A DNA stretch of 64,000 bases from Lytechinus pictus. Lineage: Eukaryota. The stretch's first letter is position 1. Every line of letters begins with the position of its first letter. Of this stretch, positions 3,098 to 58,812 are shown piece after piece. The translations under genes and the position numbers were made by a program. The stretch is from contig NC_087251.1 in assembly GCF_037042905.1 (NCBI RefSeq), positions 41,542,001 through 41,606,000 on the forward strand. The letters are read 5' to 3'. The notes below the pieces were generated by a model, which ran no database searches, was not told where the DNA came from, and saw only the letters and a program-made list of their open reading frames with translations.

Positions 3098-5766
3098 ATA
3101 TGTAATTTGACCATGTACAGTGTTAATTCTGTGTCAATCTCAAAATTTCAGACTGCTAGATTAACCGTTTTCATTCTGGAGACACATGACACATGACTCA
3201 TCAAGAAGAAAAGGTGATGCTTTATCTCAGAAAGCCAGACACTGGATATGCCATTTGAGATGCTCAGTGATTCTGAAATGTGCCAATATTATTCAATGCT
3301 ATGAAATTACCCCAATTCATGGAGCTTGGCTTACTCCTAGGTGGAATGAGTAATTTTATGATTTTCTTACAGTGCTGTCAGATCAACCCTATCTAATCAT
3401 GCCCTAGGGAGACTGATGATTGGCATGTTGATATATATCTCCTTTAGAAATCTCATAATTTGAGGCGCTAGATGGGCAGTGAGGGAGAAAACCCCCGCTT
3501 GGGTTGGCTTGCAGACGTGTCTATCCCACCTTAGTCAGATCACGGACCTAGGTCCATGGTCAGATCCAGCCGTTGTGGATGGATGATGGTAGCAGGAATC
3601 TATGCAATCAATGCCATAATTGAAAAATAAAGATGAAAACATCCTCCTTCTACTAGAGTCCTCTCTGGAGTGATTCATTTCATGTACTGCAGCCTGGTTC
3701 ATGAAGCATCATGTCAGTGATTTTCACTGACTAATTCATTCTAAGCCAATCAAATACAAGGATTTCAGTAGCTTATAACTGATGTCAGTGAACAACAGCT
3801 GCTTTTTTGTTTCATGAGATGCTCCCCTGGAAATTGGTTCAGAGGGATCTGGGCATGACTGGAATTGTATAGTTGTCTCTTCTGCACTTGGAGTGGAGTG
3901 TGATCAATTCAGAAAATGGACTGCATCTTGTGTAATGATTCAGTGAGGGTCACGATCAAATAGTCGGAGATTTTGTGCCTTCATATTTTGCACCATGACC
4001 CTTGTGGAATGTTAATGGCTGTATGATTGAAAGTGAAGAAGCCTGGATTTACATGTATGGAACATATCAAAATCATTGGAATTGTTACTTGCTTTGCTCT
4101 ACTTCCATTAGCCCCAACACTGTTTTTTGTTTGTACTTGAAAAAAAAATCTAAACTTGAACACTTTGACTATATATTTAAGTTTTTGATGGAATTTCTTG
4201 AGAAAGGCAACATCAGTATGCAGAATTGAGTGGTACATGTCAGCACCACTATCTTAACATGTAAATCTGTTTCTGTATCGTTACATTTTTATTATTCAGT
4301 GGCCTGTGATGTCAAAGAACCAAGTAAAACAAGAAAAGTATGGACTGGAATTGGATTTAAAGGGTGGATTTAGTTTGAAAACATGATTTGAATGAAACAT
4401 TTGGGGGGGGGGGGGAAGAAAGATGAAAAAGGGAGATAATGTTTGTAAAAATGATGATGATGATGATGATGATGCTGATAATGACAGCAGTCAACAAGAT
4501 ACATGTTGCTTCTCAATGTGTGGTAACTGTTGTGGTTTATCATTTTATTAATTTGGCCATTTTCTACATATTACAAATTGAAAAATAAAAGCAATTGATT
4601 TATTGTTTCCGCAGAATGCATTATTTAGATACTATACAATATACATGCAAGCGATGTCTTGTTAATAATGATATCATAAGAATAGCCATGAGTATGATGG
4701 GATATTGTACTGATCAAAGACTCATTCTCTTTGAAAACAAATAAGCTTGAACCTTGAGACAATTGTTTACCTCAGAGATCAAAATCCCTTCAAACTATTA
4801 TGTTCTCTTGATGGGATTGTTTGCTTTTCTTCAAATGAATCACATTGTGTATATTAACCTTCACGATGGTATAGTTTGTCAATGATATTATGGCAAGGAC
4901 TATGAGACGTGTAGTTCAAATGGATTCGGTTTTTCAGGTTTTTATCATTTTGAAAGGATACTGACAAATGCAAGGTTCAAAATGTTGGATAGCAACCAAT
5001 AAAACTCACGTACATACATGTACTACAGCTATATTATTTAGATACGATGATGTGAAGTATGTACTAAGAGTCAGGGTTTCTTGGATTGAAATTATCTGAA
5101 CTTTGTACCCACTATTCATTCATCCAGTCTTTAATGTTTTGATCTACCACACACCTTTGTCTACCAGTAATAATAATATATTGATTAGTATTTTGGTAGC
5201 ACACATGATTGACTGTTGTTATGCATGCATGTACAGTACATTAATGATATTACTTGTATGAGTTGTATGTTGCCATAATAGGAAGAAATCACAATACCAA
5301 GTGTCCTGTTCATGGTAATATAATTTTCACTCTGTGTAGTTTAAAATATTTTTTTAAACTTGTATGGTGTTACAATACATCCTCCATGGTTAAAAAAAGA
5401 TATGATTCCGTGTGTGCTATTTTCCTGCTTCCATTTATTCTATATTTCATGTACATATTCATCCCGATGATATTACATGTAACTTAATGTACAGGAGCTG
5501 TTTCTCAACATACATCTTATTTTTCGTGAGATATTTAAGGCTGAATCAACCTCGTGTCTGTTTAACATTATCAGTTATTAGTAAGAATTTGTAATTGTAT
5601 TTATTTGAAGGCAAGACTATTATATTAAACTCTGATAATCCTGAAATATTTTCCCATAAATCATAATTGCTCTCCCCTGTCCTTTAATCGCATATTTCCA
5701 AATAAATACTCATACACCAGTATTGATCAATCATTTGTGGAAAAAAAAATACCAGAAGGAGTTTGT

Positions 5767-6217
5767 GAGGCTGTTCTCACTACGTTCCTAAAACTAGTTT
5801 ACTGGAAACTAGTTTAGTGGAAACTAGTTTAACGTGTAGTGAGAACGGTCGAAGCGGTCTTGGAAGCGATCTTCCAAACCAGTTTGGAAAACCACCTCGC
5901 GATGTAGTTTTTAAGACCGCTTTGCCTCGTTAAACTGGTTTTAGCGTAAGTGAGGACACAACCGTTCTTCGGGAAGCGATCTTCGCACATTTTGAGCGCG
6001 CTACTCCACACGACAGGTGTAGAATGCCCATGCTGCGGTTTCGAATTTCGCGCGAAACGTGTCACCCCACTGAGAGCGTTTCCTTAGCATCAAGAAGTGA
6101 TTTTGAAAACCACTTTCGTGTGATCAAGTGGGAACGCTAGCAAAGCGATCTTCCAAAGTGGTTTCCTGAATCGGTTTCCAGTTAACTAGTTTTAGAAAGC
6201 GTAATGAGAACGGCCTC
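5767..6217. mobile_element. MITE, PIF/Harbinger-like
   Basis: ~40-bp TIRs GAGGCTGTTCTCACTACG..TAAAACTAGTT / AACTAGTTTTAG..CGTAATGAGAACGGCCTC. Confidence 0.8.
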
Positions 6218-9054
6218 TATGGTACCTAGGATTTACATGTATAACCCACATGTCAGTTGTATGTCCCTGAATATAGTGTCAGCTGGTAATTAAAAACATC
6301 CAGGGGCAATGATGTTAGGATGCATGTATTTTGTTTGGGGTGTTGAGACCATAGAGTAATAGCTCTATGTTGAGACCTACATGTACAGTAATTGTGACAC
6401 GTACTTTTTTTCTTAATTGAATTTTAGGGTATTAAAGAGTTACAAGAACCAGAATTCTCATTTTTATATTCTTTTATTTTTTCTATTTTTGTCTTTTTTC
6501 ACAAGAAAATCATAGGATGGGCACCCCCCCCCCCATCCTGTGGCACTGCCCATGAAAACAACCATTTACCCTCTCTTGAACTATTGAAATAGGGCCAATA
6601 ACTGGTGAAACCCAAGTCATATAGGGCCTGATATCTAAGCCTCATTTCCTTTTCTAGTCTGTCTTTAATAGGTGATCATGTATCTGTGATATTAAAACCC
6701 CATGCCCTCCTTGACACAGAGCTCAGTATCAGTTGTCTAGCTCAAAACGATAGATGGGTCAAGCACAATTCATGGCCATCTAGCTACATTGTAGCTGCTC
6801 TATGTGTAATTTGCACAGAGTGTCCCCCCCCCCCCCCAATTTCACCCCTCCATATCAGTAATTGATTTTAAAGATGATCGAAGTCATTGTCACATTTCTG
6901 AATTTCGGCTAAAACTATCAGGCCTGCAATGTACTTCCATTTCATTGATTTCACATACAAAACCTCGCTAATGCAAGATGATTTTATAGAATACATGTTC
7001 TTGTATTTCATGTGACATACTTAAAAAAATTTTGTATTTGATGTAAATAGGGTTCGTTATGAGCTTATTGACAGGGGCATCAGGTGATGATATATTATAT
7101 TAAAACATTAAATGAATAATAGATGAATATAAAATTTCAGATGCTAAAGGTGAAAATGGGAACTTCATATCTAATGGAGATAGTTTTCCAAGTCACTGAC
7201 AAACATCAAAATCAATACACCATATCTATAAATTGGAAGTTATTTGTTGAAAATTTAAGAGCTTCTGTGGCCTTGATTTCTATTAGTTATTGAAGTCCCC
7301 CCCCCCCCCCATTTACTTGATGAACCAAGAGAGATGATGTTTATCTCAGTTGAAATTTTCCTCGGTTAACCCAGTTTCATCTTGCTAATGTGCTCAGAAA
7401 GGGAGGGAGATGTGTATCTTCTCAATGCTGTACATTCCAGATGATAGCTCTAGGCATCCAAGAACAGAACGTGTTGACCCACTGTGAGGGCATATAGAAG
7501 ATTGAAGGTTGCGTTGGCAACTGACAGAGAAACACATCTTCATCAATAATAACAACAACATTAAATATTTAGAATTAGACGGGGGGGGGGGGGTCTACGA
7601 ACGTGCATGTATCTCAAACTGTTGATTGTGTTATATGATAAAAGAAACATCACTTTGTACATGTAATTCATTTCAAAGTAGATATTGAGGGACGCCGAGA
7701 GAAAGCGAAAAAATTATTAAAGGATTCATATTAGTTTAAAAAAAACGAATAAAGAAATAATGGTATTCATTAAAAAAAAACGAATAAAGAAAGTTACACG
7801 CATTGATGTGTAACAACTCCTACATAACAAAAGTGAAGAAGATAATGTATATTGTACAGATACCTATCAAGTAAAGTTCTAATATGATTTAAGTCATTCT
7901 GCTGATCAATGTGCTTTTAAGTGGAAGTTTTATGAGCCATTGTTAGAAGAGTAGATACATGTACGTATGTATTTCAGTCAATAATGCTGTTGTGTACAGC
8001 GTCGGAACACTTGTACAGGATATGAATTCTGCTGTAGATGGATCCGAATTGTGGCAGTATATTTGGCTTTGCTGATAATTTCTTCTATTGTCACTGAAAT
8101 CTGATAATAAATATTCTTCACTGTGCAATTATTAAAGAAGCCAGGTTTGATATGATAATCATTTCTCCTTTCAATAGTTTCAATATATATTACTTTTTTT
8201 ATATTTGTCTTATAATGACTAATGATAATGGTTACAGCGATTCTTTTTTCCCATTCACTTTCAGTGTAATACTTTCTTCAGGCACCGTAGTTTCTCTGTA
8301 AGTACCGTTTCAACCACCTTCTAAATTGGCTGTTGTTGATAGACAAGGTATTTACAACCCAGATGCGTGTTTATGCTGGATAGGTTGAGTTCAGAGGTTA
8401 AGTTTGCATGATCGATAAAGTCAGATGAGTTTTTACCTTATTTGGTTTTCAAACCTGTTAGTTTTTCTTTGATTTAGGATGTACTTTTCTGCTAAACTGG
8501 GATGTGTGTCATAAAGGTGTCCATGTAATACACATGTAACACAGGTAACCTGTATTAAATGAGATACACCCCCTATTTAGTGGGAGTAATTTAAATTTCC
8601 AGTCACTCTAATGGTGGCAATATGGGGGGGTGGGGCACCTTGAAATTTGAATTTTGTAATTTTGTATTGCAGCCAATGAGAGAAGGTCATGTTGTTCCAC
8701 TCCAGAGGGACCAGATATCTCATGAAAATTACTGCGCGTCCAAAAGCATATCTTTAGCTTTAAAGGGTCAATAATTATACTCAAGTATCATCATACATTC
8801 AAATGTTAAAAACTCGTAGTAGCCGTTTGATCGTTTTTCAACGGCCGAATCTCTGTCAACATTTAAATATTCAAATCAATCATACCTAGCACCCTCTCTG
8901 TGTGGTTTGTTTATCATTTGTAAGTTACGAATTTTATAGGGATGTTATATTAAGAAGCTAATCAAATCAAAAAATATATTAAGAAGCTACAGGCAAATTG
9001 AATAAAAGAATTTTAAAGATAAAAAAAAACAATAATTAAAATGCAAACCCCCTA

Positions 9055-9900
9055 AAATGTGAAGGTTGATAACCACGTCCTTGAAAGAGTTCAAAATTTC
9101 AAATACTTGGGCAAGTGAATGGACTAGTCGCTCACCTGGCAAAAACAAGTTGATGCCATGAGCAAGAAAATAGGCTCACGCATAACCGGTAGACTGAGAA
9201 AGTACTTAAAGGTCAAGTCCACCTCAGAAAAAGGTTGATTTGAATCAATAAAGAAAAATCAGACAAGCACAATGCTGAAAATTTCATCAAAATTGGATGT
9301 AAAATAAGAAAGTTATGATATTTCAAAGTTTCGCTTATTTTTAACAAAATAGTTATATGAACGAGCCAGTTACATCCAAATGAGAGAGTTGATGATGTCA
9401 CTCACTCACTATTTCTTTTGTTTTTTATTGTTTGAATTATACAATGTTTCAATTTTTACAAATTTGACGATTAGGACCTCCTTGCCTGAAACACAAAATG
9501 TTAAAATAATGGAATTCCACGTGTTCAGGGAGGAATAAAACTTCATTTCACATGACAATGACGAGAAAATAAAAATATTTCATATTTCATATAATGAAAT
9601 ACAAAAGAAATAGTGAGTGAGTGATGTCATCAGTTTCTCATTTGCATACCGACCGAGATGTGCATATAACTGTTTTGTGACATGAAGCGAAACTTTAAAA
9701 TGCCATAACTTTCTTATTTTACATCCGATTTTGATGAAATTTTCAGTGTTATGCTTGTTGAATTTTTCTCTTTTTATTCAAATCAAGTTTTTGTTGGAGT
9801 GGACTTGTCCTTTAACTATTGATAGTGCTAAACTTCTACATGTAGCTAATATTTATAGCTAATGCCTTGATAACACCACACTTTAACTATTGCAGCCTTT
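9055..9900 (+). mobile_element. CR1/L2-like LINE RT C-terminal remnant, split by the MITE at 9210-9811
   Basis: Translates VLERVQNFKYLG..D.SLTWQKQV..MSKKI before the MITE and NALITPHFNYCS after it. Confidence 0.6.
9210..9811 (+). mobile_element. Kolobok-like non-autonomous element, TTAA TSD
   Basis: TTAA|AGGTCAAGTCCAC ... GTGGACTTGTCCT|TTAA with long internal inverted repeats; inverted copy at 45136-45729; related fragment at ~16980-17210. Confidence 0.85.
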
Positions 9901-11124: not shown

Positions 11125-14100
11125 TGAGGTTGGGTTTTCAAACTGAAGGATAGAGCGTAGTTTGATGTCTCTTACTCGGTGTACAGTGTGTATCATAAAA
11201 GAGTGACTTGGGTTGGGTTTACAAACCATGTAGGATAGAGCACAGTTATGTCTCTTGCACGGTGTACAGCGTGTATAATAAAAGAGTGACTTAGGTTAGG
11301 TTTACAAACCATGTAGGATAGAGCACAGTTATGTCTCTTGCTTGGTGTACAGTGTGTATCATAAAAGAGTGACTTAGGTTAGGTTTACAAACCATGTAGG
11401 ATAGAGCATAGTTATGTCTCTTGCACGGTGTACAGCGTGTATCATAAAAGAGTGACTTAGGTTAGGTTTACAAACCATGTAGGATAGAGCATAGTTATGT
11501 CTCTTGCTCGGAGTACAGTGTGTATCATAAAAGAGTGACTTAGGTTAGGTTTACAAACCATGTAGGATAGAGCACAGTTATGTCTCTTGCTCGGTGTACA
11601 GTGTGTATCATAAAAGAGTGACTTAGGTTAGGTTTACAAACCATGTAGGATAGAGCATAGTTATGTCTCTTGCACGGTGTACAGCGTGTATAATAAAAGA
11701 GTGACTGAGGTTAGGTTTACAAACCATGTAGGATAGAGCATAGTTATGTCTCTCGCTCGGTGTACAGTGTGTATCATAAAAGAGTGACTTAGGTTAGGTT
11801 TACAAACCATGTAGGATAGAGCACAGTTATGTCTCTTGCTCGGTGTACAGTGTGTATCATAAAAGAGTGACTTAGGTTAGGTTTACAAACCATGTAGGAT
11901 AGAGCACAGTTATGTCTCTTGCACGGTGTACAGTGTGTATCATAAAAGAGTGACTTAGGTTAGGTTTACAAACCATGTAGGATAGAGCATAGTTATGTCT
12001 CTCGCTCGGTGTACAGTGTGTATCATAAAAGAGTGACTTAGGTTAGGTTTACAAACCATGTAGGATAGAGCATAGTTATGTCTCTTACTCGGTGTACAGT
12101 GTGTATAATAAAAGAGTGACTTAGGTTAGGTTTACAAACCATGTAGGATAGAGCATAGTTATGTCTCTCGCTCGGTGTACAGTGTGTATCATAAAAGAGT
12201 GACTGAGGTTAGGTTTACAAACCATGTAGGATAGAGCATAGTTATGTCTCTCGCTCGGTGTACAGTGTGTATCATAAAAGAGTGACTTAGGTTAGGTTTA
12301 CAAACCATGTAGGATAGAGCATAGTTATGTCTCTCGCTCGGTGTACAGTGTGTATCATAAAAGAGTGACTTAGGTTAGGTTTACAAACCATGTAGGATAG
12401 AGCATAGTTATGTCTCTTGCTTGGTGTACAGTGTGTATCATAAAAGAGTGACTGAGGTTAGGTTTACAAACCATGTAGGATAGAGCATAGTTATGTCTCT
12501 TGCTCGATGTACAGTGTGTATCATAAAAGAGTGACTTGGGTTGGGTTTACAAACCATGTAGGATAGAGCACAGGCTCGATGTACAGCGTGTATCATAAAA
12601 GAGTGACTAAGGTTAGGTTTACAAACCATGTAGGATAGAGCACAGTTATGTCTCTTGCTCGGAGTACAGTGTGTATCATAAAAGAGTGACTTAGGTTAGG
12701 TTTACAAACCATGTAGGATAGAGCACAGTTATGTCTCTTGCTCGGTGTACAGTGTGTATCATAAAAGAGTGACTTAGGTTAGGTTTACAAACCATGTAGG
12801 ATAGAGCATAGTTATGTCTCTTGCACGGTGTACAGCGTGTATAATAAAAGAGTGACTGAGGTTAGGTTTACAAACCATGTAGGATAGAGCATAGTTATGT
12901 CTCTCGCTCGGTGTACAGTGTGTATCATAAAAGAGTGACTTAGGTTAGGTTTACAAACCATGTAGGATAGAGCACAGTTATGTCTCTTGCTCGGTGTACA
13001 GTGTGTATCATAAAAGAGTGACTTAGGTTAGGTTTACAAACCATGTAGGATAGAGCATAGTTATGTCTCTCGCTCGGTGTACAGTGTGTATCATAAAAGA
13101 GTGACTGAGGTTAGGTTTACAAACCATGTAGGATAGAGCATAGTTATGTCTCTCGCTCGGTGTACAGTGTGTATCATAAAAGAGTGACTTAGGTTAGGTT
13201 TACAAACCATGTAGGATAGAGCATAGTTATGTCTCTCGCTCGGTGTACAGTGTGTATCATAAAAGAGTGACTTAGGTTAGGTTTACAAACCATGTAGGAT
13301 AGAGCACAGTTATGTCTCTTGCTCGGTGTACAGTGTGTATCATAAAAGAGTGACTTAGGTTAGGTTTACAAACCATGTAGGATAGAGCATAGTTATGTCT
13401 CTCGCTCGGTGTACAGTGTGTATCATAAAAGAGTGACTGAGGTTAGGTTTACAAACCATGTAGGATAGAGCATAGTTATGTCTCTCGCTCGGTGTACAGT
13501 GTGTATCATAAAAGAGTGACTTAGGTTAGGTTTACAAACCATGTAGGATAGAGCATAGTTATGTCTCTCGCTCGGTGTACAGTGTGTATCATAAAAGAGT
13601 GACTTAGGTTAGGTTTACAAACCATGTAGGATAGAGCATAGTTATGTCTCTTGCTTGGTGTACAGTGTGTATCATAAAAGAGTGACTGAGGTTAGGTTTA
13701 CAAACCATGTAGGATAGAGCATAGTTATGTCTCTTGCTCGATGTACAGTGTGTATCATAAAAGAGTGACTTAGGTTAGGTTTACAAACCATGTAGGATAG
13801 AGCATAGTTATGTCTCTTGCTTGGTGTACAGTGTGTATCATAAAAGAGTGACTGAGGTTAGGTTTACAAACCATGTAGGATAGAGCATAGTTATGTCTCT
13901 TGCTCGATGTACAGTGTGTATCATAAAAGAGTGACTTAGGTTAGGTTTACAAACCATGTAGGATAGAGCATAGTTATGTCTCTTGCACGGTGTACAGCGT
14001 GTATAATAAAAGAGTGACTGAGGTTAGGTTTACAAACCATGTAGGATAGAGCATAGTTATGTCTCTTGCTCGGAGTACAGCGTGTATCATAAAAGAGTGA

Positions 14101-15623
14101 CTAAGGTTAGGTTTACAAACCATGTAGGATAGAGCACAGTTATGTCTCTTGCACGGTGTACAGCGTGTATAATAAAAGAGTGACTTAGGTTAGGTTTACA
14201 AACCATGTAGGATAGCGCACAGTTATGTCTCTTGCTCGATGTACAGTGTGTATCATAAAAGAGTGACTTAGGTTAGGTTTACAAACCATGTAGGATAGAG
14301 CATAGTTATGTCCCTTGCTCGGTGTACAGTGTGTATCATAAAAGAGTGACTTGGGTTAGGTTTACAAACCATGTAGGATAGAGCACAGTTATGTCTCTTG
14401 CACGGTGTACATGTACAGCGTGTATAATAAAAGAGTGACTTAGGTTAGGTTTACAAACCATGTAGGATAGAGCACAGTTATGTCTCTTGCACGGTGTACA
14501 TGTACAGCGTGTATAATAAAAGAGTGACTTAGGTTAGGTTTACAAACCATGTAGGATAGAGCACAGTTATGTCTCTTGCTCGATGTACAGTGTGTATCAT
14601 AAAAGAGTGACTTAGGTTAGGTTTACAAACCATGTAGGATAGAGCACAGGCTCGATGTACAGTGTGTATCATAAAAGAGTGACTTAGGTTAGGTTTACAA
14701 ACCATGTAGGATAGAGCACAGTTATGTCTCTTGCACGGTGTACATGTACAGCGTGTATAATAAAAGAGTGACTTAGGTTAGGTTTACAAACCATGTAGGA
14801 TAGAGCACAGTTATGTCTCTTGCTCGATGTACAGTGTGTATCATAAAAGAGTGACTTAGGTTAGGTTTACAAACCATGTAGGATAGAGCACAGGCTCGAT
14901 GTACAGTGTGTATCATAAAAGAGTGACTTAGGTTAGGTTTACAAACCATGTAGGATAGAGCACAGTTATGTCTCTTGCACGGTGTACAGCGTGTATAATA
15001 AAAGAGTGACTGAGGTTAGGTTTACAAACCATGTAGGATAGAGCACAGTTATGTCTCTTGCTCGATGTACAGTGTGTATCATAAAAGAGTGACTTAGGTT
15101 AGGTTTACAAACCATGTAGGATAGAGCACAGTTATGTCTCTTGCTCGGTGTACAGTGTGTATCATAAAAGAGTGACTTAGGTTAGGTTTACAAACCATGT
15201 AGGATAGAGCATAGTTATGTCTCTTGCACGGTGTACAGCGTGTATAATAAAAGAGTGACTTAGGTTAGGTTTACAAACCATGTAGGATAGAGCACAGTTA
15301 TGTCTCTTGCTCGGTGTACAGTGTGTATCATAAAAGAGTGACTTAGGTTAGGTTTACAAACCATGTAGGATAGAGCATAGTTATGTCTCTTGCTCGGTGT
15401 ACAGTGTGTATCATAAAAGAGTGACTTAGGTTGGGTTTACAAACCATGTAGGATAGAGCATAGTTATGTCTCTTGCTCGGTGTACAGTGTGTATCATAAA
15501 AGAGTGACTTAGGTTGGGTTTACAATCCATGTAGGATAGAGCATAGTTATGTCTCTTGCTCGGTGTACAGTGTGTATCATAAAAGAGTGACTTAGGTTGG
15601 GTTTACAATCCATGTAGGATAGA
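11125..15623. repeat. 83-bp tandem satellite, about 54 copies; about 2 more diverged units at 16032-16190
   Basis: Unit GGATAGAGCAYAGTTATGTCTCTTGCTCGGTGTACAGTGTGTATCATAAAAGAGTGACTTAGGTTAGGTTTACAAACCATGTA; period checked at 11233->11316. Confidence 0.98.
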
Positions 15624-16031: not shown

Positions 16032-16213
16032 GGATAGAGCACAGTTCTGTCTCTTGCTCGATGTACAGTGTGTATCATAAAAGAGTGACTGAGGTTGGGT
16101 TTTCAAACCGTGAAGCATAGAGTGTAGTTTGATGTCTCTTGCTCGGTGTACAGTGTGTATCATAAAAGAGTGACTGAGGTTGTGGATAGATTTCAAATTC
16201 CTGTGCCTTTCTT

Positions 16214-16960
16214 AGGGACAGTGATTTTCCGTTTCTAAAAATTGCCTTTTCCGTTTCAGAAAATCTTAAATTCCGTTTCAGCATGTCTGAAAACGGAAAT
16301 TCTGTTTCCCCATAGACATTCTGTACATGAAAAAGTGACAGTTCTGTTTACATAGAAATGAGTAGCGATGTCAAAATGCTTGCGCTGGTCAAAATTTGCA
16401 TCTGCCACTGTACTAACATTGCTTTAAAATCCATTTTAATCGAAGAGATTAGAGTACAAAAACTATTTAAAAAAACATAGTCAACATGAATACATCCTCA
16501 CCTTTCACATTATTAGCATTAGTTTATGGTTAAATGAGATTTTATTGCTGATTTGGGAACTTTTTGGACATCGTTTTGAGCAGTTGATGACTACCGCCTA
16601 TCTGCCATTTTGGATTTGTTGAATCACCGCGATCATGATATGACCGCAGAGGGCAGACTTATATGCGGACTTGAGTGTAAACTAATTTAGATACGATCGA
16701 GTGATGATCAATGGAGGGGCTCGAGTGCAGTTACAATGTGTTGATTGTCATGATTGTTGTAGCGAAGTGAGATCGTGTTTTTTTTCCAGTTGATATTCGT
16801 ATTTTGTTGAGGATTTGGGAGTAATTTCTGTTGCTATTCTGTGCATTTTGAGAAAAAATATGTTTTCTGTGATTTTCCGTTTGAAAAGCCACTTTCAGTT
16901 TCAAAAGGCTGATTCCGTGAATTCCGTCCGTTTCTGTGATCGCAGAAGATCACTGTCCCT
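16214..16960 (+). mobile_element. hAT-like MITE
   Basis: TIRs AGGGACAGTGATTTTC / GAAGATCACTGTCCCT; degenerate 8-bp flanks CCTTTCTT / TCTTTCTG; TTCCGT subterminal repeats. Confidence 0.8.
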
Positions 16961-21216: not shown

Positions 21217-21320
21217 ATGGCCTCTGTGTGGAAGAGACTTCAGAGGGTCGGCAAGAGAGCTGCCAAGTTCAAGTTCACTGGTTCGCTCCACGAGTTGGCC
21301 GTGGAAGCTACCAAAAAGTG
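21217..21320 (+). CDS. EHBP1: EHBP1 coding exon 1 (MASVWKRLQRVGKRAAKFKFTGSLHELAVEATKKW), NT-C2 start; exon probably begins at 21118 in the 5'UTR
   Basis: ATG in ATAATGG context; donor GTAAGT at 21321 (phase 2); acceptor ttttgtag ending 21117. Confidence 0.95.
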
Positions 21321-23290: not shown

Positions 23291-23867
23291 CCCGGGGGGG
23301 GGGGGGGGCACTTCCATTGACGAGTGGATACCATGCGCGACCATGGGGTCTCGAAAAGCACCTAAACACGTATTTTCCATATTCTGAAAATGCACCCCTT
23401 AACAAGTATTGGCATGTGAAACCCTACCCTTAACAAGTATTGGAAACAAAACGATACTCTTGGCAAGTATTCCCTGAATTGACCCCTAAACAAGTAACAG
23501 TTACAACAATATTTTTATTGTTATGTCACTGTTGTCGGTTTTACCTTTACCTGATTAGGTTGAGTACAGCCCCATCTCCCACATCTCGCGCAGAATCGTA
23601 CTCTAAACACGTAGTGTCGACTCTTGGGGCAAAAAGTACATCCTTTATAAAAACGTTTTAGTCTTAATTTTTTACACCCTCGCAAATTTGACCCTAAACA
23701 CGTTGCTTTCCTAGCGAAAATAGATACGCTTTTTTATTATTTTAGTGTTTTTGACACCCTTATTACGGTACGTACGTAACGTGCCCTATCTTGAAAAAGA
23801 CATCTTTTTTATGTGTTTTTTTGGTCGCGCATGGTATCCACTCGTCAATGTAAGTGGCCCCTCCGGG
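23291..23867. mobile_element. MITE with CCCGGG(G)n termini, 7-8 bp TSD (G)GTAGAGA
   Basis: Near-perfect TIR CACTTCCATTGACGAGTGGATACCATGCGCGACCA and its reverse complement at ~23822-23856. Confidence 0.9.
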
Positions 23868-27465: not shown

Positions 27466-30204
27466 CCTTACTTTATCTCCCTTCTGTCTTTTTTTGTTAT
27501 CTTACCAGTCAGCTCATCTTTTTTTCAGATGTTAAAGCTCATCTCAGCAGAAACATAATTTCTCTGAAGCATTTCACGAAACAAGTGATTATATACTACT
27601 GAAATCCTTGCATGTGATTGGCTGAGATCAAATTTGTCAGTGAAAAATCAACTGACAAGATGCTCCATGAAACCGTGGACCTACTAAGGTCCATGATGAA
27701 ACACACCACACAGAATATGAATAAGCCCTTCACCCTTTCCTATCTGTAATATCCTCCATTAACATATTGACAATGAATAAAGATAATGAAAACATTGATA
27801 AAAGAGACATTTCTCTTCTTCCACAGTTTCTCCAAATATACATGGCTCTGGTTTGGTATAGGTTTCATGTTTGAGATATTTGTTCTAGTTCAGAATAATA
27901 AGGGAATATAAGCTAGAGATTTACTAGAGAGCAGTAATTGCTGATGTAATTGCCATATCTGATATGTCTATTATCAATTTATTTCAGCCGCCATCACTAA
28001 CATGGATTTAGTGGATTCCAAAGCACAATAAATTTATTACCTATTTTGACTGCTTTCACAGACATTATCCATCCCTTCCAAATTTCGCTATTAGATTTGT
28101 TTTGATTGGATTCTGTTGCCTTTTTCTTATATTGTCATGCAACTCAATCACAGCACATTGAAACAAAAATGACCTGGGGCAAGTGTAGGCCTACAGTTTG
28201 AACGACATTCTTTGATAAATAATTTACGACCATTTATCTATTGATCCCTTGTGAGTACTAGAGATGCTTGTGGCTTTCATCCATATAATTAATATCTGAC
28301 ATATTTTGATTGATAATGTGTTGAAATTATGGGTATTCATGTAATTTTGTCCTTATCCGATTTCCACCTGTAAAGTCCTATTCAGTGCATTAGATTCACT
28401 CGTCTTAATACAATGGAGATAATTGAAGGGGATGACCATCGATATACTGATCCCATCAATTTAATGAAGACCTCTTGTATTGTTAACATGAGATCAAGGA
28501 TTTTCTATCAATAAAAACAGGATGTAAACAACTTCAGTACAAATAGAAAAATAGATTTCGATTCAGTTCAGCCAGAGTACAGCACTTATCTTCTCAACGA
28601 ATCCGAATATTTTAGTTTTCATTGGTTTTATAAAGTGGACAGAGGTAAAATTAAAAACATACAAGTTTCTTCTATCCCTAAAACAATAAATGATTTGGAG
28701 TTATTATGATTGTTTTTCTATTTGGATAGATGTGGATAGTAAAAAATATAGTTTTTAAAATGTACTTTAATTTTGAGAATTAATATTGTGGAATCTGTAA
28801 TTGAATATTTTTTGGGGTAGCATTGCATCATGATGACTGTTTGGCATACTAGATGTTTGAATCACCCATCCATTTCTTACCAGGGTTGGGGCTTTAAAGA
28901 ATCTTGTAGGAATCTTAAAAGGAAGGAAGAAGACCTCATTGTGAAGGAATGTAGTAGCCATTGTCCAGTTTTTTGGTGAGTGACCATCAAGTGGACAAAG
29001 AACGATACACATGACAGCTCATCTAGCTCTCAGAGGTATCGATTGGCTACTGGCTCCTTTCATTTCTTCATGCTGCAATGCCCGTTCATCAAACCCCCTT
29101 CTATTCTTTGTTTCTATCTTCCTTTGTGATGGAAGGAGGGATGGTCTACTGATGATGCCCAACCAAGAAGGGTATGGGGGGAGAAACCCACAAGCCACAA
29201 TAAAAGGGTTATAATCAATTGCACAAAAGTCCCGTGAATAGATCTGAATAGGGATCATAAAAGGAAAGCAAATAAAAGAAGGTTGGTTTCATCTGGCTTC
29301 CTGAAGAATGCTGGCCCTACAATCTTGGTTTGATTCACAGGATTAATGCCTAAGCCGATGTACAATGCAGATTAGCAGTCTTAAAAAAAAAATGAAAGCT
29401 GAGATTGTAAGTCGGCGAAGAGAAATGAGTGATGGAAAGCTGCGGTAATGTCTGATTGGCCTCTAAAAAGTGTCTCTCCTTCTAACAGGTGTGTGGATTT
29501 TAGCCGCTGGCCTGGGCCCCGGGGATGATTTACACCTCTATCTGCTTTATATCGAATAAAGTTACCTTTTCTTTTGCAAGGTGACTCATCCCTTTAAATT
29601 CTAAAATCCTTTCCTTAAAGATGTTACGCTACAAGGTCATAAGATAGTGATGTCTTCAGAATGTTACATCCCCATTATTATGACCACTAGCAAGAGTTGA
29701 TAGAAATAAAGTTTACTCACCCTAAATTATTAAAACCATATTAATTTTGCCGTAAATGTAGTTATTTCATCTCTGAATTAATGGAGAATGAGAAAGGGAA
29801 CATTGCAGTGATGAAACCATTAATTCATTTTCTTCATAGTACCGCAGGCAGTATCACTGAATTTTCATACTGTAGTAGCTTTAATAGAAAGGATCTTCAC
29901 AATGTCCCTTTCTTGTGAACTAGATATCATTTAATGAAAACTATTATTAAAAGTTTAATATTAAAGCATTAATGCAGACTCGAATTCAGGGGCACTCTTT
30001 TAGCATAAAAAATGATTAAACAATTTTGATCATTCAGTGGACGTCTATTGCTCCAAGTTTGATTTTCTTTAAAAAGATGACCAGACAATATTTGTTCATT
30101 CTACCTTATTGAGCGGAGGATCCAACTCATGAGCACTTCATGTCTTTCATATTCCAGCCAATCTCTTTCCTTTCTTGATAATTATAGTACTAAGTTTTTA
30201 TATA

Positions 30205-36897: not shown

Positions 36898-37100
36898 GGA
36901 GCGTTGTGGCCCAGTGGATTGGTCTACCGACTTTGAAACAGAGGGTCGTGGGTTCAAATCCCAGCCATGGCGCAGTTTCCATCAGCAAGGAATTCATCCA
37001 CAGTGTGCTGCACTCAACCCAGGTGGGGTAAAGGGGCACCCGGTAGGAATTAATTCCTTGAAATGCATGTGCGCTGTAAGTAATTACGGCCGCCAAGCTT
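36898..37100 (+). mobile_element. tRNA-derived SINE
   Basis: TGGCCCAGTGG (A box), GGTTCAAATCC (B box), body TGTGCTGCACTCAACCCAGGTG shared with the 40250 copy. Confidence 0.85.
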
Positions 37101-37219
37101 GATACAAAGAATTATAAGGGTAAGTTTTTTAGTTCAAGGTAGCAAGTTTACCACTTAATCAGAATCTCTAAGCATCCTACTATAATGCAACATTATTATC
37201 CTGTCTATTTTTCAAGGAG

Positions 37220-37296
37220 TTAGGTCCTACCAGGTACCCATTTACCTCACCTGGGTAGAGTGAAGCACACTGTAGATGAATTCCTTGCTGAAGGGA
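37220..37296 (-). mobile_element. Partial SINE of the same family, inverted
   Basis: Reverse complement of the body of the 36898 and 40250 copies. Confidence 0.75.
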
Positions 37297-37485: not shown

Positions 37486-38666
37486 GTAAGTAACGTTGTG
37501 GTTCATGAAACAGAATTCATGTTTTTTGCTGGGTACATTTTTTTTATGACAAAACAGAATTTCCATTTAAGATCACAAGTTTGAAATGGAATTACAGGTT
37601 TTCAGAAATGGAAAAGGTCCTGAGCCACTAAGAGCTGAATTATATCATCGACTCTTTTAACGTGTTAATGTTGCCATTTGGCACTAGATAAGTCCATAGA
37701 TCTATGATAACTCTGCATTCAAGTTCCCGTCTGTCTGACGTATATGACCTGATTTTGAGTTGTTATGTACATGTAGGTCAACTCACAAGAATAGAATCTA
37801 GGTACATGGCATTGCTTGTATGTTTTCTATGGGTCATCAAATACTTTGTATTTCCATCTCAGTTGAGTAGAAATGATAAAAAGGGCTTCATTCCATCTAT
37901 ATCTTTCCTGTTTCATTTCTTCCAATGAGTTGAAGGATCATCTTAAAAACTTTGATAGATCAGTCCATCTTATTGGAAGTCATACAAAATGAGACCATTG
38001 TTTTTTTTATTAGTCTCATGTCCCTTATTTTGTTACTACCTTGTCTGGAAGTTGCCTTTAACCACCAGCAAAATCCATAAAGGATTGATTGGAACGTTTT
38101 TGTGACTAAATTGTACAAAATTATAAGATATTGTACGATCATACACAAATCATCAAATTTGTCCTTTTGTATTGATCATAAAATGCAAAAGGAGTATGGG
38201 TAAGCAATTCAAATTAGTAAAATAAAATTAATTTTTGGCAGTTCAAGGGGGATATTCTCACTTGATTCCAGTAATAAAGATGATTTCTAAAAACAATTGT
38301 TTTAAATTTTGCTGAAATAAATAAGTAGGTATATGCTGTAAAGATACCTCGGTGTAATCCTTGGGTAATACCACATTTGTGGTGATGAAGATGGTGAGGT
38401 CAAAGATCATCTAGGGGTCAAAAGATCAAATGATTAAACATATAAATTTTGTTTAAACTTCTAACAAATGATCATTGGGTATTGTCACGTATAGTCCTAC
38501 AAAGCTTAGGGTCAAAAGGTAATTTTGCATGTTTGTTTTTTTGATGGTGAAATCAGGTGAGACACGTGAACCACCTTGTTATTTAAAATTTTTGTCGAAG
38601 AATTATTAAAACAATTCTTCATCTTTCGAAAGAAAAATGATTTGACAACTTTTTCATGATATGCAG

Positions 38667-42908: not shown

Positions 42909-45135
42909 GTATGTTGTAAAATTCAGGGCGCTCTGATTAATGATACTTTAATTTGAACATTCCGAAACAGATATAAGACATTTGTAATGATCTCCCTATG
43001 TAGGTCTTACAGATCTCTAAATCCTGAATTTCTAAGGCATGTTTGCTGTTGTGTAAGGACAATGCATTTTTCATGTAACATAATTGATGTATATAATTCC
43101 CGACTCATTTATTAGGATTTGCTGGCATATTCCTTGTGATTTTTAAGTTCAAATGAGTTTGGCTGTCAGTTAACAGACTGTTGGACTGCTTGTTATAGCT
43201 ATTTATTTTGTCTGATTTGATGGAAAGGTAAGAGGATTTGGTCAGATCAATTCTTTCTCATCTAATTCTTCATACTTAAGAAGTATGCTTCATTGCTCTT
43301 GTCCTCCCATTTATTTCCCCCCATTTACTCTCCTTCGCTTTCTCTCTTCACTCTCCATCTCTTTATCTTCCTTTCACACCATCACTCTTTCGTTCGTTCA
43401 CTCTCTCATGTAATGTCACTCTCCGTATTATCTTTTTATTTCTTATTAACTCTTTTTTTTTGCTTTCTGAATATAAACTCATTCTTATATCATAGTTGAA
43501 CTGATTTCTTTCTGCCTCTTTCCATTTTTTTTCAATTGCTGTCATTTATGAGAATTATCACTGTCTATCCTTGTATTTCCCCCTCTGAGTCTTAAAAAAA
43601 ATCTATATTTTCTTGTAAGTTAGACTAGCACATGGAGATCTGTCTTTCACCCCTTTCTGTACTTTCTCTTTATTATTTGGGGGAGTATAGAGTCTAAAAG
43701 AGAGGGAAAAAAAGAACATAAAATTTATTTGAGAGTGGAAAGATCAAAAGGGTGAAAAAAGAGGGTGCATGCAGTGAATGGAAGAGATTTAGTCAGTGGC
43801 ACACAATAGTATGAGAGGCATTATGTAATCAGCCCTAGATCTATCTTATTCATATTGGGGCTTCCTATTCAATCAGAGTACTTTTCAATAGATGCCTGAA
43901 TGAAAAGATGGGGAGGCGTTGGCCTCATCACTTTCTTCTATCCCCCCCCCCCCACTCCCATCAGAATCACTTTTCCCCCTTCTTTTTCTAATTTCTCAAG
44001 TAGAGTTACATCTGAGTGGACAAAGCATACAATGTGTCAGATCGTGTTCTTTGTCTCTTGACTTGAGTTTGGTGATTGTAGTGACCATAGAGTGACCATT
44101 ACAATAGATGATCCCCACTCCTAAAGCGGCTTTACACCCCACATTACCCTGCATGCTAGGGCTGCTGCCAACTAGATCCTATTGTCCGAGTCATCTTGAA
44201 AGGTTTTGATTGAAACTTTACAATTCACTTTTTATTATAACCTCTCGACACCCCTCCTATCCTTCCTTCTTTCTCTCTCTCTCTCCCTCATCTTGTAAAA
44301 AAATAATGGGGAAGAGGTGAAAAAAACTATCATGAAATAAAAAAAAAGCTTAAGGCACTTGCAACACTGTCAGTTTATATGCTTTCACCCTCCACGTCTT
44401 GTGTGTATCTAAATTGATTATTTTCAGATTTAGTGCATTATAGATGCTGATGATTGTTGGTCATTATATCATAATCTTTTTCTCCCTCAGGGGGGATGAA
44501 AAGAAAAGGGTTGCTAACATCTTTCCCCACTCTCCCTTGTCCTCTGTCACCTGCTTTTTAAGTTTTTAAGTACAAAATGGAAACCATGGAAATTAGTAAA
44601 ACCATCATGGCCCCCATTAGTTTAGAAGAATAGAGAAATGAACAGATGCACGTTTTTAAATCTGGGATTTTATCCGTGAAATGAAGAAAGTTGAATTCTA
44701 ATGTTCATTATGTAAGTTAATCCCTACTCTGGAAACAAAATGACATTTTAAACTTGGTAAGAAGACTAATTGAAAGGGGGGAATAGAAGTGCTTGTTACT
44801 TTTTTCTCTCAACTTATATGGCAAAACTAACCCTTTTGGTCACTAGATGTGTAACCATTAATTCTGAAGAAAAATTGATTTAACATCAGTGGATTTTTTC
44901 CCCTCTTTAGTCAATACATTTTTGATTTAGAATGACTGAATTAAAGAATCTAATGTCTGTAACCAATTGATGGAATTAAGCCTTGCTATTAATCCTTTTC
45001 ACCACAAAACCAGTTTATGAAGGGATTAGTAAGCATGTGGTCTAAATATTGGTTTGGTCTATTTTTCTAAAATAAAATAGAAAGCGCTGTATTTGTCTGG
45101 TAATTTGGGGGTCTTTTAGTGCTGAAAGAAATTAA

Positions 45136-45729
45136 AGGACAAGTCCACCCCAACAAAAACTTGATTTGAATGAAAAGAGAAAAATTCAACAAGCATAACA
45201 CTGAAAAATTCATCAAAATCGGATGTAAAATAAGAAAGTTATGACATTTTAAAGTTTCGCGTCATTTCACAAAGCAGTTATATGCACATCTCAGACAGTA
45301 TGCAAATGAGGGAACTGATGACATCACTCACTCACTATTTCTTTTGTATTTTATTATATGAAATATTTTGATTTTCTCGTCATTGTCATGTGAAATGAAG
45401 TTTCATTCCTCCCTGAACACATGGAATTCCATTATTTTAACATTTTGTGGTTCAGGCAAGGAGGTCCTAATTGTCAAATTCGTAAAAATTGAAATATTGT
45501 ATAATTCAAACAATAAAAAACAAAAGAAATAGTGAGTGAGTGACATCATAGACTCTCTCATTTGGATGTAACTGGCTCGTTCATATAACTATTTTGTTAA
45601 AAATAAGCGAAACTGAAATGTCATGACTTTCTTATTTTACATCCGATTTTGATGAAATTTTCAGCATTGTGCTTGTCTGATTTTTCTCTATTGATTCAAA
45701 TCAACATTTTTCTGAGGTGGACTTGACTT
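45136..45729 (-). mobile_element. Kolobok-like element, inverted copy of 9210-9811
   Basis: TTAA|AGGACAAGTCCAC ... GTGGACTTGACTT|TTAA; high identity to the reverse complement of the 9210 copy. Confidence 0.88.
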
Positions 45730-46316
45730 TTAAATGAATTTCATGCTCTAATGAAGTATCAACTTAAAAGTTTTATTTTAATATACACTGTACATTATAC
45801 TAACTCTAAAAACTACTAAAAAAGACTTTCTGAAAAAATATGCAGAAATTTGCACCCAATGAGCTCCTCTTCAACCCTCGAAATAAATTCATATGGTCTT
45901 GCCTTAACAAATTTAATGTAATGCTTATACTGTACACTGAAGCTTCTATTTTATTGAGAGAAGGTGCCCTTATTGTTATATTGTTTAGTTCATGTTTGCT
46001 GGTGGCTTTTGTTCTTTTTCAAGGACATTTTTTTCTATCTCGTAATATGATAAACAGTGAAAGTTAACAAATATTGTGGTATATCAGATCCCATTAAAAA
46101 AGGTTTTAATGTGCATTTGTGTGCTCTTTCAATTGGTGATTTTGAAAAGTTAGTACTACTTGAGTTGTCTGTGTCTTTCTCTCACTGTAAAGTTATTTCA
46201 TCCATACTTTCTCCCTATTGTACTATTGTTCACTTTTGTACTGTTTTTTTCTTCATGGAACTCCCTTTAACTGCATCTCCCCATTTCTGGTGATAATCCA
46301 TTCCCTTCCCCCTACT

Positions 46317-54559: not shown

Positions 54560-55240
54560 GCTTTTGATGCCGCTGCTGCCTGTGGCATTCCAAGACTTCT
54601 TGACCCTCAAGACATGGTCCTTTTGGCCGTACCGGACAAACTTGCCGTTATGACTTATCTCTTTCAACTGAGGGCGCACTTTACCGGCCATGAACTGGAA
54701 GTCAAAAGGATTGGTCGTACAACGAAAAAGAGCACGTACATTGTTGGGAACTACTCATCAGACAAATCCATGCCAGAAGATGTATTTGCACAGGAAACAA
54801 ATGTCATCCATGACAACAGGGTTGTAGCAAATGGAGAGAGGACAGAAAATGGAGAAGAGGTTGTTTCAAATGGAGTTCCAAAGAGCCCAGGCTCACCAAC
54901 TAAATCAGGACCCAATAGCGGGAAGAACTCCCAAAAGAATGGTGAAGACAAGGTGGAAGGAGTGGACAACATGAACATTAAGAACTCGGACAGCAACGGG
55001 CATACGGACCTGTCAAGAAGTGCTACCAGTAGCAATGTGGAAATGAGACTCCCAAAACAAACATCAAAAGATAAAGAAGCAGAATCAAATGGTGTTGACT
55101 CTGATAAGAGCAGGACTCCTGCAGATACTCCTGCAGAGAATGGGAGGAGCCCTGTAGGAGCTGGTGGAGACCAGGTGTGGATCAGAGCTCCTGCAGGTGC
55201 CAAGAAAGACACTAAAGGGGATCTGGAAGCCAGTCAGAAG
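54560..55240 (+). CDS. EHBP1: EHBP1 coding exon 11 ([38 protein letters not shown]...ASQK), CH C-half plus disordered region
   Basis: Acceptor ctgtag, donor GTAGGC, 681 nt open (contains the body of the 211-aa ORF in the track), phase 0->0. Confidence 0.93.
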
Positions 55241-56104: not shown

Positions 56105-56385
56105 GAGGTCCATGTATAAAACCTTTGAAACTACAGATAGTGGTTGGAACTATCTGGAATCAGTAGGTCCATGAATAAAAGCTATGAAACTACAGATAGT
56201 GGTTGGAACTGTCTGAAATTGGTAGGTCTATTAATTATACCTATGAAACTACAGAAATTGGTTGGAACTGTCTCAAATTCGTAGGTCCATGTATAAATTA
56301 CAACCTATGAAAATAGAGAAAGTTGGTGGGTGGAACCATACGGAATCTGAAGGTACACGTACAAAATGCATGGAAGTACAGAATT
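56105..56385. repeat. 59-bp minisatellite, ~4.5 diverged copies
   Basis: GGTCC/GGTCT anchors at 56107, 56166, 56225, 56284. Confidence 0.9.
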
Positions 56386-56609
56386 AAAAGTCAATGGAGG
56401 TTATCTTGATTTCCACCTCAGATATGGGATTGAAACTTAAACGAAAAGCAGATAGGGCAAGGCATATCTGGTTGTTGGAGAAAAGCTTTCAACTGTGTTC
56501 TGTACAGTCCCATGTAAAAAAAAATTGCTAGGTAAAAAACATTTTGTCGTAGAAAAATGTGGAGCAAATTACCATACAATAGCTGAATAGGGTAAGTGGT
56601 GCATTGGAA

Positions 56610-57336
56610 CATGGACCTATTAGAGATGGACTCTCATTGAATTGTTAATGAATTTACTGACATGTGACCGTCATTGTGCTATGAATAGCATTCTCTTGAT
56701 TTTTTTTCTACTTTCATCCTCCCGTGTTCGGCCGTCAATTCGACCATGAGTTGAAAGATGCAGTTCGTGATTAGACATTGATATTGCACAAACTGTATGT
56801 GCAGAAGATGATAAATCACTTAAATCCTGGAAAATTGATGTGCAGATCTGATTCTTTGGCAATCTTAGTTCCAAATGTTTTATTATGAAAAATGTATGCA
56901 TGTTTTAAGATAGAGGCAATATTGCGTTTGATTGTCTTATTTATAATCCTATTTTTCCAATTTTCCTTCTAATATTCCGGAGATACATGGCTCATATCGT
57001 GTAGAGAGCGTTTATCTCTTAATGTTATTGAGGTCATTATGTGCGTGCGGAAGTGTGCGGATCAAATAATAACATATTCATGTCACAAAATCGTCTGCTT
57101 CGTAATTTTGCTGCTTCAAATCTAAAGCGTGTTGATTGAAAAGCATTTTGTAACACAGGGCATCAACCAACGAAATCAGACCAGGAAAGCTGTGCTTTTG
57201 TAAATAACCAGATGCGCCTTGGTATTCGCTATGTATGTACATACACCTGTATGTTCTCATTAAGATGCACATGGTGGCGGATCTCGTTCAATTAAAGAAA
57301 TGATAGCGTTGAATGTCCATCTCTAATAGGTCCATT
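56610..57336. mobile_element. P-element-like MITE, ~7-bp TSD
   Basis: TIR CATGGACCTATTAGAGATGGAC / GTCCATCTCTAATAGGTCCAT(T); flanks ATTGGAA / ATTGGAC. Confidence 0.8.
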
Positions 57337-58812
57337 ATTGGACTAAAACATTAAAAAGGGTGAGGACAGGGTAAAATGATAAATTATAAATTTGAAATAT
57401 TGAATATAATGTGATGAGAGAGGGGAAGCAAGGAGCGAGTCAATGAGAGAGAGGGAGAGAGAGAATGACGGGGGGGGGGGGGCATCATGAGTGATTAAAT
57501 TTGATTTATTTCTCACTGAGAAAGAAAGAAATAATCTGACTGAACGGCAGGCTAAATGAGTACAGGATCTCAAACACAAACAGCTGCGTTAATTGTGGGT
57601 TAACAGATAGAAAGATAGAAATATGATAATATAGGTCAAACGGATTTTGATATCCTTAAGATCGCAGCGATTACCTTTTTAATTATCATCAGTATGACCT
57701 TCACTTTACTCGTATCTCGCTATTCAAGATGATAGAATGTGTACAGCAATGTATTTTTTTTCCCCTTAATAGTGATGAATGCAGTATCCTAAAAGTTGTG
57801 GAATATAGGGGATCTTCTCTCATTTTTCCTTCTCTGCACAATTTTGAGTCATTCAGGATTTTAAAGACATATTGTGTCTAGCCAGGAGACTTGATATCTG
57901 GAATTTGTTATTTTTTAAATTTCTTTCAATGTTATTGAATGGTTTGCACCCGATTCTGGTATGTAATCGCTTCATATACATCAGTGATATTAGTATATTA
58001 AGCCCATGATGGAAGAAGATATTAGGTACATGTACTGTGTAAAATGGTTATGTTTACATCATTTAACTAAATGGATGATCAACCAATAACTCTAAGATTA
58101 CATGCATGGGTGACATATGGATTGATATAAGATATTGCACTGATTTGATATTGCTTCTGATGGTTGACATGTATATTAGTTGTGTTCTGTGGTGTTATTT
58201 TCATGCTTTTTATTGTTTGTAGACTTTTGTTTACCTGTGATTTAGGAATAGGGAGATTTTTTATGAGTAATTGCCATTTCAGTGTTTTTTATCCTTTCCT
58301 ATTATTATTTTATCCCAGAGTGGTATCTTGGTTGCCTGCTGTATGTATGTGTGTGTGAATAATCTTAAAGCATATAAATATATATATTTTTTCTATTACT
58401 TTCTTAGCCAATAAATCAATCCTGACATTTCCATGCTATTCCAATATTTATGATTTAATTTTTGCCTCTCTCTGTTTCTTTTCCTTTCTCTTGCTCTCTC
58501 TTGCTCTATAGATCTCTCTATTTTGCTTTCTCTCTTTTCTCTTTCTTCCTTTCTTCTCTCTTTTGTTTTTTCCTCCCTTTATCTTTATCTTGTTAAAGAA
58601 GAGGATGATTTTGATTCAAACCGAAATGAATAGTACAAAATATATAATTATTTGTTATCATATAAATATGTTGAATCATACTGATATAACCCATAATGTT
58701 AAAGTTATATCATTGAGTTATTGCCTTGAACTGTGATATCAATGATATAAAATGTTCAAACACTTTATTAGTGAATGTCTGAAATATTAATTCTCTCTGT
58801 TTGATTAAGCAG

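Follow-up and report, generated by a model that had tools for sequence, protein, structure and literature searches.

When the Drosophila P transposase excises its element, it cuts one strand at the 3' end of the element and the other 17 bp inside the terminal inverted repeat (TIR) (PMC7776569), and end joining then leaves the overhang sequence between the two copies of the target-site duplication (TSD) (PMC3878927, PMC3408717). The long P stagger is called atypical and, in the text consulted, is given for the Drosophila enzyme only (PMC7776569, PMC10983969). 1360 and Galileo, which belong to the P superfamily, have 7-bp TSDs (PMC3698922), with the palindromic consensus GTAGTAC in Galileo (PMC2775673); the word 'footprint' has 0 occurrences in PMC2775673 and PMC3698922, and no stagger data were seen for Galileo or 1360. 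In zebrafish, the P-like element Pdre2, whose TIR starts with CAT, is excised by P-type transposases (PMC10983969). Here, we describe an 18-nt insert at 3541-3558 of a 64-kb window (the whole stretch of DNA that was analyzed), which is probably a footprint left by end joining after a P-superfamily-type element was excised. Footprints formed in this way are already known from Drosophila P, and what is new here is an empty allele and a caution on the stagger. Staveley et al. 1995 reportedly described P footprints with roughly 16-bp retained ends. A search covering mainly open-access papers showed none that describes P-type scars as a natural class across a genome.

The insert lies between two identical 7-mers, the whole spanning 32 nt (3534-3565), and is a near-perfect palindrome, self-complementary save for one mismatched pair. 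Its left 10 nt are 9/10 identical to the TIR of a 727-bp element at 56610, its right 10 nt, read inward, are 10/10 identical to the same TIR tip, and the two tips share the central TA. The original prediction had described a palindromic 18-bp insert with a perfect 7-bp TSD, made of the outer tips of the 56610 TIR placed head to head, and both points hold: the repeats match at 7/7 positions, the insert is as written and the tip identities are those just given. The features of the locus and its putative partner are:

3534..3540, no strand: left copy of the 7-bp target-site duplication (7-mer identity; a single 7-mer in the empty allele)
3541..3550, plus strand: left TIR, outer 10 nt kept (9/10 to 56610-56619; one substitution, at position 3)
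3549..3558, minus strand: right TIR, outer 10 nt kept (10/10 to the TIR tip; TA overlap at 3549-3550)
3559..3565, no strand: right copy of the 7-bp target-site duplication (7-mer identity)
56610..57336, no strand: non-coding TIR element of 727 bp that shares the tip of the focal insert (TIRs at 56610-56631 and 57315-57336)

As in Drosophila P footprints, both TSD copies are kept with only outer TIR tips between them (PMC7776569, PMC3878927, PMC3408717), the join falls at a short self-complementary stretch and the termini are of the CAT type. The TSD is 7 bp here versus 8 bp in Drosophila P and the tips are 9-13 nt versus approximately 17; moreover, the scars here are natural and sit in an animal genome, whereas the Drosophila P footprints come from excision assays. 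Galileo and 1360/Hoppel share with this locus the 7-bp TSD and a palindromic target (T2 and A6 in 4/5 targets here) (PMC2775673, PMC3698922), but they have long foldback arms where the 56610 element has short 22-bp TIRs. Short TIRs starting with CAT are also found in zebrafish Pdre2 (the Pdre2/THAP9 system), a deuterostome P-like element, although its 8-bp TSD and 13-bp TIR differ from the 7 bp and 22 bp seen here (PMC10983969). Footprints of Tc1/mariner and hAT elements are likewise cut-and-paste excision scars repaired by end joining; however, Tc1/mariner has a TA target and 2-3 retained bases, in contrast to the 7-bp duplication and 18-nt insert here, and hAT forms hairpins on the flanks and leaves flank-derived bases with no TIR tips kept, whereas the insert here is TIR-derived (PMC3878927). 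The TIR-derived 18-nt insert and the 7-bp duplication at 3541 match neither a hAT-type nor a Tc1/mariner footprint.

The 56610-57336 element has 22-bp TIRs with 21/22 bases paired (the element ends in T instead of G), flanked by a 7-bp duplication (56603-56609 and 57337-57343) with one mismatch. It contains no long reading frame, and a Pfam scan of 5 among its 12 short frames gave no transposase domain, a sub-threshold DUF3447 being the only match. BLAST of the element against the window gave self-matches consisting only of the TIR and one internal 14-nt palindrome, and among longer CAT...ATG elements with 7-bp repeats in the window it is the sole convincing case. Judging from the shared tip, it may serve as a model of the element formerly at 3541. 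Approximately 300 bp upstream lies a 59-bp tandem array of 3.3 copies (56106-56297), the unit of which includes a 9-10-nt TIR tip in right-end orientation.

The alleles of other sequenced samples bear on the origin of the insert. Contigs of four runs (X1, X4, X5 and X15; 18 listed), taken from the species of the window or a close relative, were aligned to 3100-6700. Two of them, X4 record 17 (1213 nt) and X5 record 25 (773 nt), come from two samples of two studies and span 3100-3727. Both lack 21 nt at 3535 and 4 nt at 3557, a net 25 nt that equals the 18-nt insert plus one 7-mer, while the other letter differences over 3100-3727 number 24 (X4) and 26 (X5), or about 4%. The empty allele keeps one target, which is one letter (at the second position) off the expected empty site, depending on gap placement. 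Informative runs at 3541 are thus 2/4, as X15 has no cover and no spanning X1 piece is among those listed. Because the site lacks exactly the insert and one 7-mer in two runs, the 7-bp repeat is a true target duplication and an empty allele exists; the empty orthologous site that the original prediction had proposed to look for is therefore present. The insert is composed only of TIR tips, and the target site exists without the insert elsewhere. No full element at 3541 was found among the contigs listed in the four-run comparison. The allele with one target could alternatively have originated by precise loss through slippage.

The same alignments hold further observations. In X1, X4 and X5, extra depth of 71-127 is limited to the insert (3535-3557), and for the latter two runs the bin means point to records covering only ~31-33 nt, which by this depth arithmetic are likely similar scars elsewhere. 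Over 5748-6406, X5 record 30 falls short of the window by 483 nt, a length close to that of a 451-bp repeat (5767-6217) plus its small duplication plus 27 nt of a second scar-like insert at 6350; by this length arithmetic on one contig, there are hints that the 6350 scar is absent from X5 too. The 451-bp repeat is a high-copy TIR repeat that is likely missing from the orthologous X5 contig. An X5 record aligned on this repeat carries a 25-letter insert, the first 24 letters of which read CATGGA...TCCATG, with a 6-place step back, and this micro-insert is likely a further scar at another locus.

Within the window, the focal insert is accompanied by three comparable candidates:

27667..27702, no strand: putative sister scar of the same tip family (22-nt insert 27674-27695, exact 7-bp repeats)
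6343..6376, no strand: putative scar with the CATAGA tip, the second family (exact 7-bp repeats around a 20-nt insert, 6350-6369)
37688..37713, no strand: weaker candidate with the CATAGA tip (12-nt perfect palindrome 37695-37706, 7-bp repeats with one mismatch)

The four inserts are all different and range from 12 to 22 nt. They fall into two tip families, with 3541 and 27674 carrying the CATGGACC-type tip and 6350 and 37695 the CATAGA tip, for which no full-length partner was found within the 64-kb window. All four start with CA- or CG- and end with -TG, and single substitutions in the CA(T)...(A)TG termini are present at 3541, at 27674 and at the right end of the 56610 element. The left side of the 27674 insert follows the 56610 TIR for 13 nt with 2 mismatches, and its junction is unlike the focal one, being either 13 + 9 nt or 10 + 9 nt with filler. 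Within the left CATG, both same-family inserts (3541-3544 and 27674-27677) show one transition that creates a CpG, on opposite strands, a change that runs counter to the usual CpG decay and could be accidental.

Whether such structures exceed chance was assessed with a tip-free scan for 14-30-nt inserts with arms of at least 7 nt and an exact flanking repeat, against 60 block-wise dinucleotide shuffles. For 7-bp repeats the scan gave 3 matches (3534, 6343 and 27667) versus 0.22 on average and at most 1 in the shuffles. The counts at shorter repeats were 4 versus 6.37 (4 bp), 4 versus 2.22 with a maximum of 5 (5 bp) and 0 versus 0.78 (6 bp), and at longer repeats 0 versus 0.05 (8 bp), 0 versus 0 (9 bp) and 0 versus 0.02 (10 bp). 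No repeat length from 4 to 10 other than 7 bp is clearly enriched. A tip-constrained scan gave 3 versus 0.005 and 4 versus 0.040, with 0/200 shuffles reaching either, but it is circular, as the motif was derived from the same inserts, and the tip-free scan is the fair test. The other 7 of 12 relaxed matches of the tip-free scan fell outside the tip-constrained scan and were dropped. The strict tip pattern first proposed fared poorly on the window: it catches 6343 alone and misses the focal insert, because both same-family inserts have one substitution in the left tip. Likewise, the count of four scars in 64 kb holds if the one-mismatch repeat at 37695 is included, whereas exact repeats leave 3541, 6350 and 27674. 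Extrapolated from this one window, 3-4 scars per 64 kb would correspond to ~50-60 per Mb, if the window is typical. Hairpin folding is no evidence for the scars, with z values against shuffles of -0.56 for the focal 32 nt, 0.64 for 37688 and about -5 for the other two. A further scar candidate at 37557 was rejected, given its full-length alignment to a repeat near 16245-16307 and its poor TIR-tip match, and paralogous repeat copies were rejected as an empty site for 27674, as their alignments end at 27671-27672.

The features of the scars fit the P superfamily in TSD length, termini and target symmetry but do not prove membership. These features are the 7-bp TSD, the CAT...ATG ends and the T..A symmetry of the target: a T at the second position is combined with an A at the sixth in 4/5 targets (37688 lacks the A) against a background of 0.100, or ~5e-4 by a hand-calculated binomial on a small sample of 5 sites. 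The superfamily is defined by a THAP-RNase H (DDE) transposase with a GTP-binding insertion, and none linked to these ends came out of scans of metagenome and viral sequence. Metagenome matches to the first 18 nt of the TIR fall at 10 loci, all of them isolated 18-mers lacking a second TIR; they do not resemble the 727-bp element beyond the match and were treated as chance. In viral sequence, the scar and 21 nt of the TIR had 0 matches each.

A footprint at 3541 would have arisen in a few steps. A full CATGGACCTA-family element would have inserted at 3541, generating the 7-bp duplication. On excision, by analogy with Drosophila P, the cut would fall at the element end on one strand and at some distance inside the TIR on the other, a geometry in which the TIR tip would stay on each flank as a 3' single strand. 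These overhangs may then have paired at TIR positions 9-10, where the TA is self-complementary, and filling and ligation of the paired tips would give 10 + 10 - 2 = 18 nt. The product is predicted to be inert, as it has no room for internal transposase-binding sites. Different junctions in the two same-tip inserts, 18 nt and 22 nt, are expected of separate repair events. The excision-scar reading of the original prediction is thus borne out as far as TIR tips between a true 7-bp TSD are concerned, the empty allele being the evidence, whereas the P membership that it also asserted is no more than probable. Scars of this kind record past transposition at sites now without an element, and they are small presence/absence variants likely to be missed by repeat annotation.

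The length of the join may also carry information on where the transposase cut. On the 56610 TIR, overhangs ending in self-complementary bases are 10, 11, 13, 14 and 18 nt long (8 imperfectly), and 10 nt is the only overhang length from 6 to 22 that gives a flap-free 18-nt join. As the simplest fit to the 18-nt join, a 10-nt stagger is modestly favored, an argument which assumes that the 3541 element shared the 56610 TIR past position 10. Trimming of a 17-nt overhang as far as the TA would yield the same 18-mer. For overhangs reaching position 14, a TIR register of 21 nt pairs 6/7 bases at positions 8-14, and this register is accessible from overhangs of 13-14 nt upward. In all four inserts, at most 13 nt are retained per tip, and to account for the 22-nt insert at 27674, one has to assume a longer overhang, a sister subfamily or filler of 2-3 bases. 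The shorter stagger suggested in the original prediction is therefore tentative: 18 nt fits an overhang of 10, but this is a single junction, and the 22-nt insert at 27674 speaks in part against it. The broader proposal, that a 7-bp-TSD family of the P superfamily cuts ~10 nt inside its TIR, not 17, and that its scars abound in this genome to the point where their length spectrum reads the cleavage depth, is tentative and in our view somewhat doubtful. If true, very common scars in a genome would show the cleavage depth of each unstudied P-like transposase from sequence, and natural scars could show how the stagger varies across the superfamily without biochemistry.

Internal collapse is the main rival to the footprint reading. 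It holds that the interior of the element was lost by aborted homologous gap repair after excision or by transposase-free slippage across the TIR stem, the latter resembling the 'nearly precise excision' of Tn10. Such a product would be indistinguishable in appearance, but the cleavage stagger could not be read from its length. Internal deletions of P do arise during transposition (PMC6404463), and the uneven 13 + 9 nt kept at 27674 and the variation in insert length from 12 to 22 nt would suit such a process. However, in an intact 22-nt TIR the 18-nt register is a 2-base match only and is not among the better registers, the 21-nt register with its 6/7 paired bases being a better one; moreover, no tip in the four inserts exceeds 13 nt, and there is one convincing longer element (727 bp). 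We consider internal collapse unlikely.

The excision footprint could also belong to a 7-bp-TSD transposon of another superfamily that cuts inside its TIR. The 7-bp TSD is shared beyond the P superfamily, and the hATw group, for example, has 7-bp TSDs (Repbase). No mention of hATw was found in the literature searched, and no transposase is linked to the ends seen here, which leaves room for such an origin; yet neither hAT nor Tc1/mariner leaves 10-nt TIR tips (PMC3878927), and we regard an origin outside the P superfamily as highly improbable.

Hardly credible is the idea that the 18-mer is itself mobile, an ends-only micro-MITE moved in trans and inserted straight into the empty site. The empty allele fits direct insertion just as well, and the contigs listed include no filled allele, but P transposase acts on a pair of ends and depends on internal binding sites in both of them (PMC7776569, PMC10983969), for which 18 bp would be too short, and the two same-tip inserts differ and are not copies of one master. 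A chance palindrome between chance repeats has next to no probability: single 7-bp-repeat matches do occur in shuffles (mean 0.22 per window) and the focal 32 nt folds no better than shuffles, but the reading is refuted in practice because of the empty allele, an exact 25-nt absence in two independent runs, and it runs against both the tip identity with the full element at 56610 and the 3 matches versus a maximum of 1 in 60 shuffles.

Nothing points to a function of the single scar at 3541. It lies ~17.7 kb upstream of the first coding exon detected (near 21220) for what is presumably an EHBP1-like gene, the exons of which extend over 21220-56054 on the + strand; a CH-domain piece of this gene at 54560, with an E value of 0.0007, does not reach the Pfam cut-off. 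The scars at 27674 and 37695 sit between exons of the same gene. The window also contains an 83-bp satellite array of ~4.5 kb (11127-15623) with a related piece at 16032-16182, and ordinary MITE-like TIR repeats of other families at 9203-9818, 23301-23864, 36979-37294 and 45132-45733.
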